The notes under the pieces are model-generated. The model was given only the letters and a program-made list of their open reading frames with translations, did not search any database and was not told where the DNA came from. Made by a program: the position numbers and the translations under genes. Shown piece after piece: positions 1 to 4,247 of a stretch of DNA of 4,247 bases. The stretch is from a virus (taxonomy: Duplodnaviria; Heunggongvirae; Uroviricota; Caudoviricetes): the IMG/VR virus record IMGVR_UViG_2778261674_000006; one strand, 5' to 3'. Position 1 is the stretch's first letter, and each line of letters opens with the position of its first letter.

Positions 1-686
1 CTGCCGAACTGCTCCGAGTCCACCTGCACGCCGACCAGTGCCGTGTTCGGGTAGCACTGTTTCACATCGATGATTTCGGTGTATGACGACCAGAGCGTTT
101 TGTTCTGCAGCTGGTCTGTGGTGCTGTCCGGCGTCATCCTGCGCATCCGGATATTGAACGGGCGCGGCGGCAGGTTACCCACCACCACCGAGGCCAGATA
201 CTGCGAGGTGGTTTTGCCCTTAATGGTGATGTCTTTTTCCGTCACCCAGCCACCATTACGCTGTATCTGAACCAGCAGGCGGACTTCCGACGGATTCCGG
301 TCCCCCTTTGAGGTGGTTTCCACCAGTGCCTGCACGCCGAAGGTAAAGCGCAGACGGTCGATGTTTGCAGACGTAATGGTGCGGGTGATCGGCGTGTCAT
401 ATTTCACTTCCGTACCCAGCACCGTCTCGGAGCCGGAGGATTCAAACCCCTCCGGCGGTGTCTGCTCCTGCTCACCGGCACGGAACACCACCGTGACACC
501 GGAGATGTTGGTATTCCCCTCAGTGTCCAGCACCGGCGTACTGTTCAGCAGCACGCTTTTTAATCCATCCACCGGACCTTCAACCGGCCCTTCGCTGATG
601 GCATCGATCACACTCAGCAACTGCGTGGACTTCAGGTTGTCCTTCGCTTCGCGCGGGGTATGCCCCTTACTGCTGCCTTTACCCAT
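1..686 (-). CDS. J: Tail tip / host specificity protein J, N-terminal ~228 aa; gene continues beyond the window start
   Basis: Reverse-complement translation from the ATG at 686..684 reads MGKGSSKGHTPREAKDNLKSTQLLSVIDAISEGP...TALVGVQVDSEQFG with no stop to position 1; this matches my memory of the lambda gpJ N-terminus. The ORF is not in the supplied track because it runs off the window edge. The plus-strand ORFs 70..270 and 313..702 are antisense shadows. Confidence 0.88.
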   Translation of the reverse strand, partial: MGKGSSKGHTPREAKDNLKSTQLLSVIDAISEGPVEGPVDGLKSVLLNSTPVLDTEGNTNISGVTVVFRAGEQEQTPPEGFESSGSETVLGTEVKYDTPITRTITSANIDRLRFTFGVQALVETTSKGDRNPSEVRLLVQIQRNGGWVTEKDITIKGKTTSQYLASVVVGNLPPRPFNIRMRRMTPDSTTDQLQNKTLWSSYTEIIDVKQCYPNTALVGVQVDSEQFG

Positions 687-746: not shown

Positions 747-1388
747 TCAGCGACCAATCACCACAACCTGACCACCATCACCTTCATCTGCCGTGCTGAT
801 CTCCTGAGATACCACCCGCGACCCCACACGCATTTCACCGTACAGAACGGGCAGGACATTGCCCTGGGCAACCATATTATCCAGTGAAGAAAAATAGGTG
901 TTCTGTTTGCCGTTATCCGTTGTCTGTGTGCGAGGGGTTTTGGGTCTAGGGGCCAGCATCTGTGCAACACCGCCAAGCGTCATACTGGCGCCGAGAGAAA
1001 ACAGCAGATTACTCGCCATAATTCCTACCCCCGGCATCCATATAGCAACCGCCATAACAGCCGCCCCCAGCACAGCCTGAAACACACCGCCACTTTTGGC
1101 TCCTGCCAGACGCGGCACGATATGGATCACAGCACCATTTGCCAGCGGTTCATTAAGACGGGCTGATAATTCCGTTTCACCTGTATCACGCCCGGCAATG
1201 CGTACCTGATACCAGCCGTCGCTCAGCTTCTGACGAAACGCCGGGATCTGCATGGCCAGCGCCCGGATGGCTTCGGCCCCCGTTTTCACACGAAGGTCGA
1301 TGCGGCGGCCAAATCGTTGCAAATCCCCGTAAAGGCAGATGCGTGCCATTCCCGGTGACGCCAGAGGGAGTGTGTGCGTCGCTGCCAT
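747..1388 (-). CDS. I: Tail assembly protein I (lambda gpI family), 213 aa
   Basis: ORF-track protein MAATHTLPLASPGMARICLYGDLQRFGRRIDLRVKTGAEAIRAL...NGKQNTYFSSLDNMVAQGNVLPVLYGEMRVGSRVVSQEISTADEGDGGQVVVIGR matches lambda gpI as I recall it. Its start overlaps the 3' end of K by 103 bp, and a ~60-bp spacer precedes J, as I recall for lambda. Confidence 0.88.
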   Translation of the reverse strand: MAATHTLPLASPGMARICLYGDLQRFGRRIDLRVKTGAEAIRALAMQIPAFRQKLSDGWYQVRIAGRDTGETELSARLNEPLANGAVIHIVPRLAGAKSGGVFQAVLGAAVMAVAIWMPGVGIMASNLLFSLGASMTLGGVAQMLAPRPKTPRTQTTDNGKQNTYFSSLDNMVAQGNVLPVLYGEMRVGSRVVSQEISTADEGDGGQVVVIGR

Positions 1389-2023
1389 TTGTCGGTATAC
1401 CTCTCTCGTTTACTCAGTTGTTCAGGAATATGGTGCAGCAGCTCACCGTCGCCGCAGTAAATGGCGGCATGATTCGGCACCGATGAACCAAAGCAGCACA
1501 GCAGCACATCGCCAGGCTGCGCCTCTGTCAGTGGGACACGGTAAAAACCAGTCGCCTCCATATTGTCAAGATAGAGATTCTGACCGTGACGCCACCAGTC
1601 ATCCCCGCGATAAAAATCCGGCATCTCAATCCCCGCCAGATGATAAGCATCCCGGAACAGCGTGTAACAGTCCGTCACCCCGTGCTCAAAGCGCCGCCCG
1701 GTGAGATGCGGCACACAGCGGAACTTGTGAATCGCCCCCCGGCAGACCAGCCACCACGGCAAATCACTCTGCACCTGCAGCCGCCGGTCGGCCTCACTCA
1801 GCCAGGGCAGACCACCGGGGTGACTGTGGACCAGCGCCACAATCTCACCCTGCATCTCTGCCTGCAGCCAGTCCTCCGGAGCCATCCGGAAATACGCCTC
1901 CGGCTCACCGGAGATATTCACGCAGGAAAAATATCTTTCCTCCTCCGGCGTTCTCACCACGAAGCCGCACGACTCCGCTGGCGCACATCGCCGGGCGTGC
2001 GCCAATATATTGCTATAGGGCAT
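1286..2023 (-). CDS. K: Tail assembly protein K (lambda gpK family; MPN/JAMM-like N-terminal region plus NlpC/P60-like C-terminal region), 245 aa from the ATG at 2023
   Basis: ORF-track frame 1286..2062. It contains the JAMM-type motif HSHPGGLPWLSEAD preceded by EMQGE, and Cys/His-containing segments (GVTDCYTLF, HAAIY, HHIPE) typical of NlpC/P60 peptidases. I chose the start at 2023 because AGGAG (2033..2029) sits 5 nt upstream; the track's ATG at 2062 would put a terminator hairpin inside the coding sequence and lacks a ribosome-binding site. An in-frame ATG at 1885 is a third alternative. Confidence 0.82.
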   Translation of the reverse strand: MPYSNILAHARRCAPAESCGFVVRTPEEERYFSCVNISGEPEAYFRMAPEDWLQAEMQGEIVALVHSHPGGLPWLSEADRRLQVQSDLPWWLVCRGAIHKFRCVPHLTGRRFEHGVTDCYTLFRDAYHLAGIEMPDFYRGDDWWRHGQNLYLDNMEATGFYRVPLTEAQPGDVLLCCFGSSVPNHAAIYCGDGELLHHIPEQLSKRERYTDKWQRRTHSLWRHREWHASAFTGICNDLAAASTFV

Positions 2024-2034
2024 GAGAACTCCTG

Positions 2035-2059
2035 ATAAAAAACCCAGCCGAAGCTGGGT
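2035..2059 (-). terminator. Intrinsic terminator downstream of the antirepressor gene and immediately upstream of the K ribosome-binding site
   Basis: Minus-strand reading: ACCCAGC-ttcg-GCTGGGT (2059..2042) followed by TTTTTTAT (2041..2034), then AGGAG and the ATG of K. This is a classic GC stem plus U-tract. Confidence 0.6.
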
Positions 2060-2077
2060 CATTTCGTTGGCAATCTG

Positions 2078-2998
2078 TTAGTAGTGATGCAGTGAAGGAG
2101 GTAATTCTTTGTTCTTAAGTCTTAGCCATGCAGAAAGATTCGTTGGTCCGTCTGGCTCATTAATATCAATATCTCGCGTGTGATTGATTAAAACGTCTCT
2201 CGCCATTCCAATAACATACGAGAACTCATGACCGTAGTCGTAGCATCTGCAGGAATAGTTCGATTGAATTTGCTTTAGCGCCGGATACAGTTCGCGGAAT
2301 AATGCCTGTGAGCGGTTGGCATAATCCCATAACCATACAAGGCTGTTTGCTTCTTTTGCAGAAAGCTCGTTGGTTTTCTTCTCTTGTTTTCCGATGAATT
2401 CGCCTTCAAGTGGAATACGAGCAGCAAGTGACAGTGCTTCGGTAAACTGCTCCTCACTGATTTCTTTGTACGAACATCCAAAATGGGATTTCAGTGACGA
2501 CCACATGGTGATCATCGCCTTCGCCTGTTTTTCTTTTGGCAGAGACTGACCGCGACTCATGACGAGTTGTTTAATAGCTTCCTGCTGTTCAGTGGTGATT
2601 TTCCCCAGCAATGCCTTTTTAGCTTTGCGCGGGTTAATCACATGGCCTTTAGTCCAGTACTCGTAGAGCACATCGTCACACTCTTCCTGATACTGGATTA
2701 CCTTCTCGCGGATTTCAGGGCGGACTTTGTTAGGACTGATGGTTTGGAGCCAACCATTCAGTTTACGCAAAGCAAGGCAAATCATGGTCTGCATACCGCC
2801 AACTGAAGGTATTGCGATTTCCACAATACCTTTAGCAAATCTTTGTTTTAACTTTGTAAACTGTGAAGCCCAATCCATACCCATTCCCTCAACGATAGGT
2901 TTCATTGGGGTGTACGGTTCGCCGTTGTGATTGACGACATAAAGCTCTGCGCCGTGGAATGGCACGTTGATAGTAGATACCGCTGTTGCTATACTCAT
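2078..2998 (-). CDS. ant: Phage antirepressor (Ant-like; the N-terminal region resembles the P22 antirepressor N-terminal domain family), 306 aa from the ATG at 2998
   Basis: ORF-track frame 2078..3052. I chose the start at 2998 (MSIATAVSTINVPFHGAELYVVNHNGEPYTPMKPIVEGMGMDWASQFTKL...) because AAGGAA (3012..3007) lies 8 nt upstream; the 3052 start adds 18 residues that overlap a terminator hairpin. The protein resembles antirepressors from enterobacterial prophages, and the gene sits directly downstream of an Arc-like gene as in P22 immI. Confidence 0.75.
   Translation of the reverse strand: MSIATAVSTINVPFHGAELYVVNHNGEPYTPMKPIVEGMGMDWASQFTKLKQRFAKGIVEIAIPSVGGMQTMICLALRKLNGWLQTISPNKVRPEIREKVIQYQEECDDVLYEYWTKGHVINPRKAKKALLGKITTEQQEAIKQLVMSRGQSLPKEKQAKAMITMWSSLKSHFGCSYKEISEEQFTEALSLAARIPLEGEFIGKQEKKTNELSAKEANSLVWLWDYANRSQALFRELYPALKQIQSNYSCRCYDYGHEFSYVIGMARDVLINHTRDIDINEPDGPTNLSAWLRLKNKELPPSLHHY
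2967..2995 (+). promoter_or_regulatory. Candidate sigma70 promoter for an antisense (sar-like) RNA: TTGATA -17 bp- TATACT
   Basis: -35 TTGATA at 2967..2972, a 17-bp spacer, and -10 TATACT at 2990..2995 on the plus strand, inside the 5' end of ant and pointing away from it. The predicted transcription start is near 3002. Confidence 0.4.
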
Positions 2999-3001
2999 TT
3001 C

Positions 3002-3071
3002 GTTAGTTCCTTGGAAGTTACTGACATAGAAGCCCGATTTGTGTTCGCGCACTGTCGGGCTTCGCTATTTT
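3002..3071 (+). ncRNA. sar: Candidate sar-like cis-antisense small RNA (~70 nt) complementary to the ant ribosome-binding site and the arc-ant spacer
   Basis: It is bounded upstream by the promoter above and downstream by a plus-strand intrinsic terminator: stem GAAGCCCGA (3029..3037) / TCGGGCTTC (3055..3063), a 17-nt loop, then GCTATTTTTAT (T-tract 3066..3071). The transcript would be antisense to the ant Shine-Dalgarno at 3007..3012. As I recall, P22 has a ~70-nt sar RNA in the same position. Confidence 0.35.
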
Positions 3072-3238
3072 TATGTCCTAGCATTCTTCTCTCCAATCAG
3101 TCCGTACACTTTTCTCAATTGATAAATAAGTTCCGTGTTGAACTGTCGACACTCTTTTTCTCCATTTCTTTCAATCGCCTTCCTTACATCCTCTGGGAAA
3201 CGAACCTTGCGTTGATACATGTCTTTTGCTTTTTCCAT
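3071..3238 (-). CDS. arc: Arc-like ribbon-helix-helix transcriptional repressor, 55 aa (not in the supplied ORF track)
   Basis: Manual translation of the minus strand from the ATG at 3238..3236 gives MEKAKDMYQRKVRFPEDVRKAIERNGEKECRQFNTELIYQLRKVYGLIGEKNART, ending at TAA 3073..3071. A strong ribosome-binding site AAGGAG (3249..3244) lies 5 nt upstream. The pattern (basic beta-strand RKVRFPEDV, then N-[ST]-E-[IL]-x-Y-Q) resembles P22 Arc (...FNLRWPREVLDLVRKVAEENGRSVNSEIYQRV...) as I recall it. Confidence 0.65.
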   Translation of the reverse strand: MEKAKDMYQRKVRFPEDVRKAIERNGEKECRQFNTELIYQLRKVYGLIGEKNART

Positions 3239-3255
3239 CTCCACTCCTTAAATAG

Positions 3256-3318
3256 CCTCACTGTGGGGCAATCAAAATTGTCACACCGTGCGTCATTGAA
3301 GTCAACCCCACCGTGGGG
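3256..3318. promoter_or_regulatory. Three candidate operator sites with a CACNGTG core, centred at 3262, 3287 and 3312 (exactly 25 bp apart)
   Basis: Site 1, 3256..3268: CCTCAC-t-GTGGGG (one mismatch). Site 2, 3281..3293: tcaCAC-c-GTGcgt (core only). Site 3, 3306..3318: CCCCAC-c-GTGGGG (perfect 6+1+6 palindrome). Sites 1 and 3 also share the direct repeat CACYGTGGGGCA. Sites 2 and 3 fall in the spacers of the two divergent promoters; site 1 lies between the predicted ant-operon start and its ribosome-binding site. Confidence 0.55.
3277..3305 (-). promoter_or_regulatory. Candidate promoter for the arc-ant operon: TTGACT -17 bp- (TGt)GACAAT, minus strand
   Basis: Minus-strand reading: -35 TTGACT (3305..3300), a 17-bp spacer, and -10 GACAAT (3282..3277) preceded by a TGn extended -10 motif. 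Site 2 lies in the spacer. Confidence 0.4.
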
Positions 3319-3324
3319 CATAAT
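3296..3324 (+). promoter_or_regulatory. Candidate promoter for the mnt-like gene: TTGAAG -17 bp- CATAAT, plus strand
   Basis: -35 TTGAAG (3296..3301), a 17-bp spacer containing the perfect palindrome (site 3), and -10 CATAAT (3319..3324). Its -35 overlaps the -35 of the divergent arc-ant promoter (3300..3305). Confidence 0.45.
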
Positions 3325-3361
3325 TTACTTATTGTGAATTTTTCCTGTTTGGACTAATGGT

Positions 3362-3736
3362 ATGAGTAGAGAAGACCCTCAACTTCGGATTAGGCTTCCT
3401 GTTGAATTAAAAAAAATAATTGAAGCGTCATCAAAACAAAATAATCGTTCTATGAATGCTGAGATTGTCACTCTGCTTGAGTTGGCGATTCGTGTTTGTC
3501 GTGATTTTGGGCCGGAGGATGGTCCTATCGTTCAGCAGTTTAAAGAACAACTAGATGCGATAAACAGAAAATATGATAAAAGCGAGCATGAAAAACTTAT
3601 ACCTCAACTTTTAGAAATCATAGAAAAACAGAAAAAACAAGTAGATAAACTTATTAGCATGGTTGAAAGATCAATTCCTCTTTCAGAGGAATATAAGCAG
3701 AAATATCTTGGTGATGACAACAAAAAACCCACCTGA
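3362..3736 (+). CDS. mnt: Mnt-like ribbon-helix-helix repressor with an extended C-terminal, probably coiled-coil, region; 124 aa
   Basis: ORF-track protein MSREDPQLRIRLPVELKKIIEASSKQNNRSMNAEIVTLLELAI... aligns by eye with P22 Mnt (MARDDPHFNFRMPMEVREKLKFRAEANGRSMNSELLQIVQDAL, from memory): M-x-R-[DE]-DP, R-[ML]-P-x-E-[VL], N-RSMN-[SA]-E-[LI]. The C-terminal ~70 residues are rich in K/E/Q/L with a heptad-like pattern. The gene is divergent from arc-ant. Confidence 0.78.
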   Translation: MSREDPQLRIRLPVELKKIIEASSKQNNRSMNAEIVTLLELAIRVCRDFGPEDGPIVQQFKEQLDAINRKYDKSEHEKLIPQLLEIIEKQKKQVDKLISMVERSIPLSEEYKQKYLGDDNKKPT

Positions 3737-3743
3737 TGGTGGG
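3722..3743 (-). terminator. Hairpin plus T-tract at the convergent L / mnt-like junction; terminator-like only for the minus (L) strand
   Basis: Minus-strand reading: CCCACC-atca-GGTGGG (3743..3728) followed by TTTTTTG (3727..3721), beginning 10 nt after the L stop codon. On the plus strand the hairpin is preceded, not followed, by the A/T run, so it is a poor terminator for the mnt-like transcript. The hairpin overlaps the last mnt-like codons and its stop (3734..3736). Confidence 0.45.
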
Positions 3744-3752
3744 CATAATCCA

Positions 3753-4247
3753 TTACTGCGAAAGCTTGTTAATGGAAAGGAAGCCGCCAAAGTTGCCGAC
3801 GTTATTGCGAAACTTACAGCCACTCAGGCATTTGCTGCATTTATCCTTCGTGATATCGGACGTTGGCTGGTCATATTCATCCGCGACTGCCGGACCGTTA
3901 TAACCGCACTCATCACCGCGATAGGTCCAGGTGCAGGTGTTGGCCAGCATGATACGTCCCGGAAAAACAGCGCCATCTGTTTCCGTCGGCGTGGACAGTA
4001 CAAAAGAGGCACTGACCGCGCTCAGTTCGCTGCACTGCTCGATGCGCCAGCGGCTGATCACCTCCTGCTCCGGATCGGCGTCGCTGTTTCCGTTGACGAA
4101 GTTCACCGCATCCAGAAAACGGGCATAAACCTTACGCCTGACCACCGTTCCGCCGACCAGACTCTGCAGGTCTTCCGCCATCCCGGTGACCATACCGTAC
4201 AGGTTAGAAACCGTCAGCGTGGGGCGCGTACTGGTGCCTTTGCCATT
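3753..4247 (-). CDS. L: Tail tip protein L, C-terminal ~164 aa; the 5' end lies beyond the window end
   Basis: ORF-track protein (from an internal Met) MVTGMAEDLQSLVGGTVVRRKVYARFLDAVNFVNGNSDADPEQEVISRWRIEQCSELS...CSKCLSGCKFRNNVGNFGGFLSINKLSQ matches lambda gpL as I recall it, including the Cys-rich C-terminus. The frame 3753..4193 is given in the track and appears to stay open up to 4247. Confidence 0.85.
   Translation of the reverse strand, partial: NGKGTSTRPTLTVSNLYGMVTGMAEDLQSLVGGTVVRRKVYARFLDAVNFVNGNSDADPEQEVISRWRIEQCSELSAVSASFVLSTPTETDGAVFPGRIMLANTCTWTYRGDECGYNGPAVADEYDQPTSDITKDKCSKCLSGCKFRNNVGNFGGFLSINKLSQ

Follow-up and report, generated by a model that had tools for sequence, protein, structure and literature searches.

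What does an antirepressor gene do in the tail operon of a lambda-type phage, and would its product be made when the tail genes are transcribed? The window (the whole 4,247-nt stretch of DNA analysed here) raises this question by its ant gene, which codes for a P22-type antirepressor of 306 aa and occupies positions 2078..2998 of the minus strand, with the ATG at 2998 and the stop codon at 2078-2080. The first-pass annotation had proposed that late transcription running into ant bypasses Arc/Mnt control and delivers antirepressor during lytic growth, e.g., against the repressors of resident heteroimmune prophages. We consider it very likely that the gene is the ant of a complete secondary immunity cassette of the immI type (an "ant moron") carried by a lambda-like E. 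coli prophage, and this identity bears on how much Ant the late transcripts could yield.

An insertion between the tail genes L and K

Outside the cassette, every long ORF supported by a protein family lies on the minus strand and is a lambda-type tail tip gene. The 3' part of the tail tip gene L (3753..4247, minus strand, Pfam Phage_tail_L 1.6e-67) forms a frame that stays open to the edge of the window, so the 5' end of L lies outside it. The tail tip gene K (1286..2026, minus strand) codes for a protein with JAB and NlpC/P60 domains and is followed by the tail assembly gene I (747..1388, minus strand, Pfam Lambda_tail_I 6.8e-24). The 5' part of the tail tip gene J (1..686, minus strand) is represented by the open frame MGKGSSKGHTPREA..., which is annotated as J in matching phages. 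With ant, L, K, I and J all located on the minus strand, the co-orientation of arc-ant with the tail genes noted earlier is plainly visible.

L and K are separated by a 1.7-kb block which starts directly after the L stop codon and has a low GC content (42.5% in the cassette vs 56-59% in the tail genes). Phages mEp332, mEp460 and cdtI match the tail genes only, which limits the match to about 59% of the window. In the cassette-free mEp332 the L stop codon is followed by the K ATG 5 nt on, and L is joined to K in many phages. The block is therefore a moron-type insertion after the L stop. It has the properties of a moron in the sense of Hendrix and Casjens: an extra block of DNA with its own promoters and terminators and with a different base composition. 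The first eight or so codons of K differ from those of cassette-free phages.

Both borders of the insert carry intrinsic terminators acting on the minus strand. The upstream one follows the L stop codon (3721..3744, hairpin 3744-3727) and consists of a 7-bp stem with 5 GC pairs, GCCCACC-AUCA-GGUGGGU, followed by U6. The downstream border is formed by the ant terminator (2035..2060, hairpin 2060-2041), located between the ant stop and the K start; its 8-bp stem is closed by a UUCG loop, GACCCAGC-UUCG-GCUGGGUU, and a U-run follows. This hairpin, GACCCAGCTTCGGCTGGGT with its T-run, is base for base the ant terminator annotated in P22. The window has 7 terminator-like sites vs 4.6 +/- 2.3 in shuffled sequences, a count which is not significant by itself; the two best-scoring of these sites are exactly the cassette borders, both on the minus strand. 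Two terminators do bracket arc-ant, as the first-pass annotation stated, while its description of them as capable of read-through goes beyond what can be read from sequence. In 305 complete E. coli genomes whose regulators are of other types, the stretch of 39-45 nt surrounding the L-side terminator is found with 100% identity. Read on the plus strand, this hairpin comes after mnt and is devoid of a U-run.

The antirepressor and its regulators

Both P22 antirepressor domains are recognised in Ant far above the Pfam cut-offs (P22_AR_N 9.4e-45, P22_AR_C 3.9e-29). The protein is 60% identical to P22 Ant overall, and in the alignment its C-terminal third (the last ~110 residues) is nearly identical. 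A sequence search of the PDB gave no match for Ant. A Shine-Dalgarno sequence, AAGGAA, is located 8 nt 5' of the ATG. We also considered a longer ORF beginning with the GTG at 3052 and rejected it, as the ATG is the start indicated by homology with P22 Ant and also the one annotated by RefSeq at a locus 99.4% identical to this one; the start at 2998 assigned earlier is thereby supported.

The mnt-like gene (3362..3736, plus strand) is transcribed divergently from arc-ant and codes for a 124-aa ribbon-helix-helix (RHH) repressor whose C-terminus is extended by a long helical segment. The protein matches the Pfam Arc family (3e-07; 30.6 bits vs the cut-off of 20.4), and a sequence search against solved structures gave the Mnt repressor as the top match (1mnt, E 0.0015, residues 3-43). 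The cassette thus has the divergent Mnt-type RHH repressor typical of P22 immI. P22 Mnt has 82 aa (83 codons, the N-terminal Met being removed according to the P22 record), and the two proteins share only ~33% identity in the N-terminal 43 residues.

The first gene of the ant operon is small (3071..3238, minus strand) and codes for 55 aa if translated from the ATG at 3238 or 57 aa from the GTG at 3244. Its position and size match those of P22 arc. The product is ~23% identical to P22 Arc and scores 19.1 bits with Pfam Arc, just below the cut-off of 20.4. It belongs to a family of 55-aa proteins and has 123 homologues across Enterobacteriaceae, mostly named 'Arc family DNA-binding protein', and some of these carry PF03869. 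A sequence search of the PDB returned designed proteins only and no RHH match. The AlphaFold2 model, built with 20 homologues, is an all-helical monomer with a pLDDT of 61 and is uninformative for the RHH fold, which is an obligate dimer. We regard the gene as probably arc-like, short of proof.

The divergent control region between these two genes (3245..3361, 117 bp) contains a Pant-like and a Pmnt-like promoter and three palindromes. The Pant-like promoter (minus strand, TTGACT-17-GACAAT with TG; -35 at 3305-3300, -10 at 3282-3277) and the Pmnt-like promoter (plus strand, 3296-3324, TTGAAG-17-CATAAT) have -35 hexamers that overlap within the palindrome TTGAAGTCAA. The palindromes are of the CAC-N-GTG type and start at 3259, 3284 and 3309, i.e., with a spacing of exactly 25 bp; the outer two are the 15-mers CCTCACTGTGGGGCA and CCCCACCGTGGGGCA, which match at 13 of 15 positions, and none of 200 shuffles contained as many matches. 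The window has only one further CAC-N-GTG site besides these three. In its core the palindrome is similar to GGTCCACGGTGGACC, the operator of P22 Mnt. The promoters are arranged back-to-back around three palindromes, whereas those of P22 overlap fully and are served by one Arc and one Mnt operator. With a promoter geometry unlike that of P22, an assignment of either repressor to a particular palindrome would be a guess. The repressible promoter and the Arc/Mnt-type control which the first-pass annotation attributed to ant are nevertheless present in the form of promoter-like sites, palindromes and the mnt-like and arc-like genes.

Control of ant by LexA was considered as well and rejected, since no LexA box (CTGT-N8-ACAG) is located within the cassette. 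With one mismatch allowed, a single match appears, at chance level and inside gene L.

A predicted, diverged sar-like antisense RNA

The best sigma-70 promoter match of the whole window (2967..2995, plus strand) lies within the first ant codons and opposes ant. This Psar-like promoter, TTGATA-17-TATACT with an extended -10 TG, scores 10 of 12 and shares an identical -10 block, TTGCTATACT, with the Psar annotated in P22. Folding and alignment with P22 sar predict a cis-antisense RNA of ~70 nt downstream of it (about 3002..3072, plus strand). The predicted RNA starts near 3002, covers the AAGGAA of ant together with the entire arc-ant spacer, and ends with a GC-rich hairpin and a U-run just before the arc stop codon. 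It folds into two hairpins (MFE -28.3 kcal/mol, z -5.06): the loop of the 5' hairpin bears the anti-Shine-Dalgarno UUCC, and the terminator hairpin with its U-run follows. The RNA aligns with P22 sar and has the same geometry, spanning exactly the arc-ant spacer as in P22. The cassette therefore contains, as a predicted element, an antisense RNA of the immI sar type that overlies the ribosome-binding site of ant and is driven by a promoter located within that gene.

The architecture is shared by related loci. Spacers were extracted from 80 further ant loci from viral contigs, and 12 distinct variants were folded separately. All 12 form a 5-7 bp stem from nucleotide 1, a UUCC or CUCC loop, a short linker and a terminator hairpin. 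Compensatory changes are found at 6 of the 12 pairs of the terminator stem, and the 5' stem is built differently by lineage (GUUAGU/ACUGAC, AUCAGUU/AACUGGU, GUCAAUA/UGUUGAU, GUCGU/ACGAU, GUCAGU/ACUGGC). The MAFFT alignment of the variants mis-registers the 3' arm of the 5' stem; RNAalifold therefore recovered the terminator stem only, and the 5' stem was judged by single-variant folding. Taken by itself, the 5' hairpin is weak (-4.5 kcal/mol, with 37 of 300 shuffles folding as well).

An Rfam scan of the whole window found nothing. When the scan was confined to 171 nt at the spacer, the sar family (RF00262) scored 15.6 bits (E 0.95) against a gathering threshold of 43, alongside equally weak unrelated hits, while P22 as a control scores 97.8 bits. 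By its position, promoter, architecture and alignment the predicted spacer RNA is a diverged sar homologue, which the Rfam threshold places outside the family. The Rfam sar model misses such diverged homologues, and automated annotation consequently overlooks this antisense layer of control.

Relation to P22 immI and other antirepressor loci

The order and the orientations of the parts are the same as in P22 immI: a late gene, the divergent mnt, the promoters, arc, the antisense RNA, ant, the terminator and another late gene. In both phages the module lies within the late operon and is co-oriented with it. The differences concern the site, the content and the sequences of the regulators. In P22 the module is located between genes 16 and 9 of a podovirus late operon, in the window between L and K of a lambda-type siphovirus; sieA, which is present in P22, is missing from the window cassette; and divergence of the sar sequence has brought it below the Rfam threshold. 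Overall, the cassette is an apparently intact moron of the immI type and an ordinary feature. This arrangement is common and understood in outline.

The same L/K layout of an ant cassette is annotated in Stx2 phages, e.g., 2851 and Stx2a_WGPS8. The L-K cassettes of these and of other E. coli lambdoid prophages share the insertion site and both border sequences with the window, their Ant is 87% identical in protein, and they likewise combine a divergently oriented RHH gene with a small gene like arc and a spacer resembling sar. Their regulators and operators, however, are of another type (Mnt-like proteins ~36% identical over 44 residues). A different kind of antirepressor is represented by GfoA, GfhA and GftA of the Gifsy prophages and FsoA of Fels-1. 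These are also encoded outside the immunity region and bind repressors, including non-cognate ones (PMC3121763), but they are small, unrelated proteins which are controlled by LexA or by the prophage repressor and are needed for induction, whereas the window encodes a 306-aa P22_AR protein in a cassette without a LexA box.

In a survey with a 701-bp query (coverage at least 80%), the ant-K junction was found in 461 of 5426 complete E. coli genomes (~8.5%), O157:H7 among them. A cassette query including ant matched in up to 7 places per genome, in polylysogenic strains. The arc/mnt module of the window type is present in only 2 of the 5426 genomes. The interior of the cassette is mosaic, with regulator types that vary inside a constant L-side terminator border; in strain EC12, for example, mnt is replaced by a gene for a 'LexA family' protein combining an HTH with an S24 peptidase. 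E. coli prophages of the P22 type carry the same ant allele (94-96% protein identity) ahead of their tailspike gene, and therefore the cassette has moved between podovirus and siphovirus late operons. The classical bipartite-immunity module of P22 has been transferred as a whole to the tail operon of prophages of the lambda type, and this arrangement is frequent in E. coli.

The closest complete relative, 97.3% identical to the window over 3 kb, occupies the lambda attachment site of strain Res13-Lact-PEA14-20 as a prophage and has the standard lambda late gene order upstream.

Possible target repressors of Ant

The window contains no repressor gene that could be the target of Ant, and to that extent the earlier statement that the target cannot be inferred is correct. 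It does not extend to the closest relative. The repressor of the Res13-Lact-PEA14-20 prophage is 94% identical to P22 C2 and has HTH and Pfam S24 peptidase domains; judging by this similarity, the C2-type repressor is likely the obvious cognate target of Ant in that prophage. The second carrier of the window-type regulators, strain CFSAN018748, has an unrelated S24-type CI of 235 aa, only 25% identical to C2, and the same protein (WP_000250473.1) is the CI of the EC12 prophage. A single fixed cognate repressor was accordingly rejected, because the two carriers of window-type regulators have unrelated CI proteins. It follows that the cassette is not tied to one immunity type, which fits an Ant of broad specificity.

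Such specificity has precedent. The spectrum of P22 Ant includes C2 as well as the phage L, lambda and 21 repressors, according to the passage in PMC3121763 that cites Susskind & Botstein (1975). A role of Ant in coupling induction among prophages was already proposed in 2011 (PMC3121763). Trans-action on heteroimmune repressors, long known for P22 Ant, and the coupling of prophages are thus not new ideas, both being already published. If Ant does hit non-cognate repressors in polylysogens, it could influence the co-induction of toxin-carrying prophages, as has been speculated in print.

We also considered whether L/K ant cassettes go together with a non-cleavable repressor. This failed in the three prophages inspected: the C2-like repressor has the Pfam S24 domain, and WP_000250473.1, the repressor in the two others, belongs to the LexA family according to its RefSeq annotation. 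Since the cassette has no LexA box and none of these three prophages has a non-cleavable repressor, Ant-dependent induction of the Gifsy type is not indicated.

Probable late transcription through the cassette and its expected yield of Ant

The 52 nt from the end of ant to the beginning of K are taken up by the terminator and a ribosome-binding site, and no promoter-like site was found in this gap. Transcription of K, I and J must therefore begin upstream and pass through the cassette. The Q antiterminator of the Res13-Lact-PEA14-20 prophage is 96% identical to P22 gp23, which in P22 enables late transcription across the ant terminator to gene 9. A polymerase modified by Q (lambda Q or P22 gp23) is expected to ignore intrinsic terminators. 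For P22, it has been described that Plate transcription runs through the ant moron, along with the roles of mnt, arc, sar and ant (PMC2629481, PMC8022706, PMC12111858, PMC11016777). The claim that ant could be transcribed late is thus strengthened: given the downstream position of K, I and J, the promoterless gap, the gp23-like Q and the P22 precedent, it is very probable that late transcripts include ant.

The further claim, that this bypasses Arc/Mnt control and delivers antirepressor in lytic growth, is weakened by the predicted sar-like antisense RNA, which the first-pass annotation overlooked and which would cover the ant Shine-Dalgarno sequence. In P22, sar blocks the translation of ant, the Plate transcript included, as stated in the part of PMC12111858 that cites Wu et al. 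(1987). The wording of that statement has 'arc', evidently a slip for ant. Because the sar-like RNA would be complementary to the ribosome-binding site on any ant transcript, late ant RNA can be expected to remain largely untranslated; in view of the near-consensus Psar we take this as the default expectation. There may be some leakage: Liao et al. (1987) reportedly observed that Psar of P22 is inhibited in vitro when Pant is transcribed towards it, and heavy late transcription might likewise lower sar and allow some Ant synthesis.

By analogy with P22, the cassette would operate as follows. The mnt-like repressor, expressed in the lysogen from a promoter of its own, would occupy the CAC-N-GTG palindromes and keep the ant promoter shut. 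Upon infection, the ant promoter would fire early, giving the Arc-like protein and Ant. Ant would inactivate CI/C2-type repressors by non-covalent binding, and the Arc-like protein would subsequently close the ant promoter. Meanwhile, the constitutive promoter in the start of ant would supply the ~70-nt antisense RNA, whose pairing with the ant ribosome-binding site would make translation of ant poor, both from its own promoter and from Q-antiterminated late transcripts. K, I and J would be reached by late transcription only after passage through both terminators; presumably these shield the cassette from unmodified polymerase and are disregarded by polymerase that carries Q. Late transcription of ant would then be real and mostly silent at the level of translation.

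The reading offered by the first-pass annotation differs from this in one step: Q-antiterminated late transcripts would yield useful amounts of Ant, the repressors of co-resident heteroimmune prophages would be inactivated, and the induction of these prophages would be coupled. Much of what it needs is in place. Late read-through across ant is nearly unavoidable (PMC2629481, PMC12111858), P22 Ant hits non-cognate repressors and has been credited in print with a possible coupling role (PMC3121763), polylysogenic strains are among those with ant-K cassettes, and ant of the window type or nearly identical to it coexists with at least two unrelated CI types. We still find it unlikely, as a conserved sar-like RNA with a near-consensus promoter would mask the ant ribosome-binding site on late transcripts too, and as the stage of late gene expression is close to lysis, which would leave a second prophage little time to benefit. 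Slightly less likely again is the more specific scenario, set in polylysogenic E. coli including EHEC, in which heavy late transcription interferes convergently with Psar and so overrides sar, and broad-specificity Ant, made in a late pulse, induces heteroimmune lambdoid prophages of the same cell, those carrying Stx included, and synchronises their bursts.

Alternatively, Ant could be dispensable and the cassette could act on the tail operon itself, the terminators and the convergent Pmnt and Psar setting the level of late transcription into K, I and J relative to the upstream tail genes. A comparable role at the level of the tailspike, possibly accidental, was suggested for the ant moron of P22 (PMC2629481), and both terminator borders of the cassette are more conserved than the regulators in its interior. 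However, many related phages build their tails with L joined to K, so no such device is needed, and the terminators are not expected to restrain Q-modified polymerase. Besides, intact, conserved copies of ant and its regulators are found in hundreds of genomes, which speaks for selection acting on Ant itself. We consider this explanation very improbable.

The least credible view, that a cassette without present function is here in the course of decay, can point to degraded ant morons in some P22-like phages (PMC2629481) and to one surveyed locus (L070) which has lost the upstream half of the spacer, but in the window the three ORFs are undisrupted, the two promoters and the two terminators are in place, and independent genomes contain nearly identical cassettes.

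Boundaries and regulatory sites of the cassette

Insertion of the immI-type cassette also changed the gene downstream of ant. The N-terminus of K (K is located at 1286-2026 on the minus strand, its start at 2003-2026) reads MPYSNILAH..., versus MTQTESAILAH... in the cassette-free relative mEp332. Since about eight first codons of K are unlike those of cassette-free phages, the insertion was not a clean landing between genes: it replaced the start of K together with the ribosome-binding site.

At the other end of the cassette, a hairpin (3727-3744) located between L and the mnt-like gene is followed by a U-run on the minus strand only. The hairpin should halt transcription arriving from L. It may be a poor terminator for mnt transcripts, which would then read through into L in antisense orientation.

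The divergent promoter region (3259-3315) includes three CAC-N-GTG palindromes spaced by exactly 25 bp; the two outer ones are 15-mers nearly identical to each other. This layout differs from that of P22 immI, where the operators comprise one Arc and one Mnt site. The 124-aa Mnt-like protein has a long helical tail; taken with the three-palindrome layout, this might mean that a single oligomer spans several of the sites.

Against the Rfam model for sar (RF00262), P22 sar (15023-15090 in L003) reaches 97.8 bits, but the sar homologue of the window (3002-3072, plus strand) no more than 15.6 bits. For most ant cassettes of E. coli, this model is too narrow to serve for sar annotation.

Related prophages and other cassette settings

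The closest complete relative is the prophage of E. coli Res13-Lact-PEA14-20 (NZ_CP062871), a natural lambda/P22 hybrid located at the lambda attachment site. Its int, red, replication, head and tail genes are lambda-type, while its C2 repressor and late antiterminator are 94% and 96% identical to those of P22 (L086 14179-14829 and 24172-24795), and the immI cassette is present as well. After the tail fibre genes come genes for type III secretion effectors (EspJ family, EspS).

E. coli EC12 (NZ_CP070229) carries an otherwise similar L-ant-K cassette which differs at the mnt position, occupied by a 269-aa HTH and S24 peptidase ("LexA family") protein (L004 3825-4634). With this protein in place, release of ant from repression could depend on the SOS response. 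The CI of the prophage itself (WP_000250473.1) carries the annotation LexA family.

The prophage of E. coli CFSAN018748 combines a window-type cassette with nin-region genes (L087 3815-5295) for an antirepressor with a KilAC domain and for a protein named "P22AR C-terminal domain", and thus has several antirepressor-like genes. In viral contigs L050-L052, L057, L059, L062, L081 and L031, the gene after ant is neither K-type nor P22 tailspike-type, suggesting that the ant cassette has a third late-operon context, if not more.
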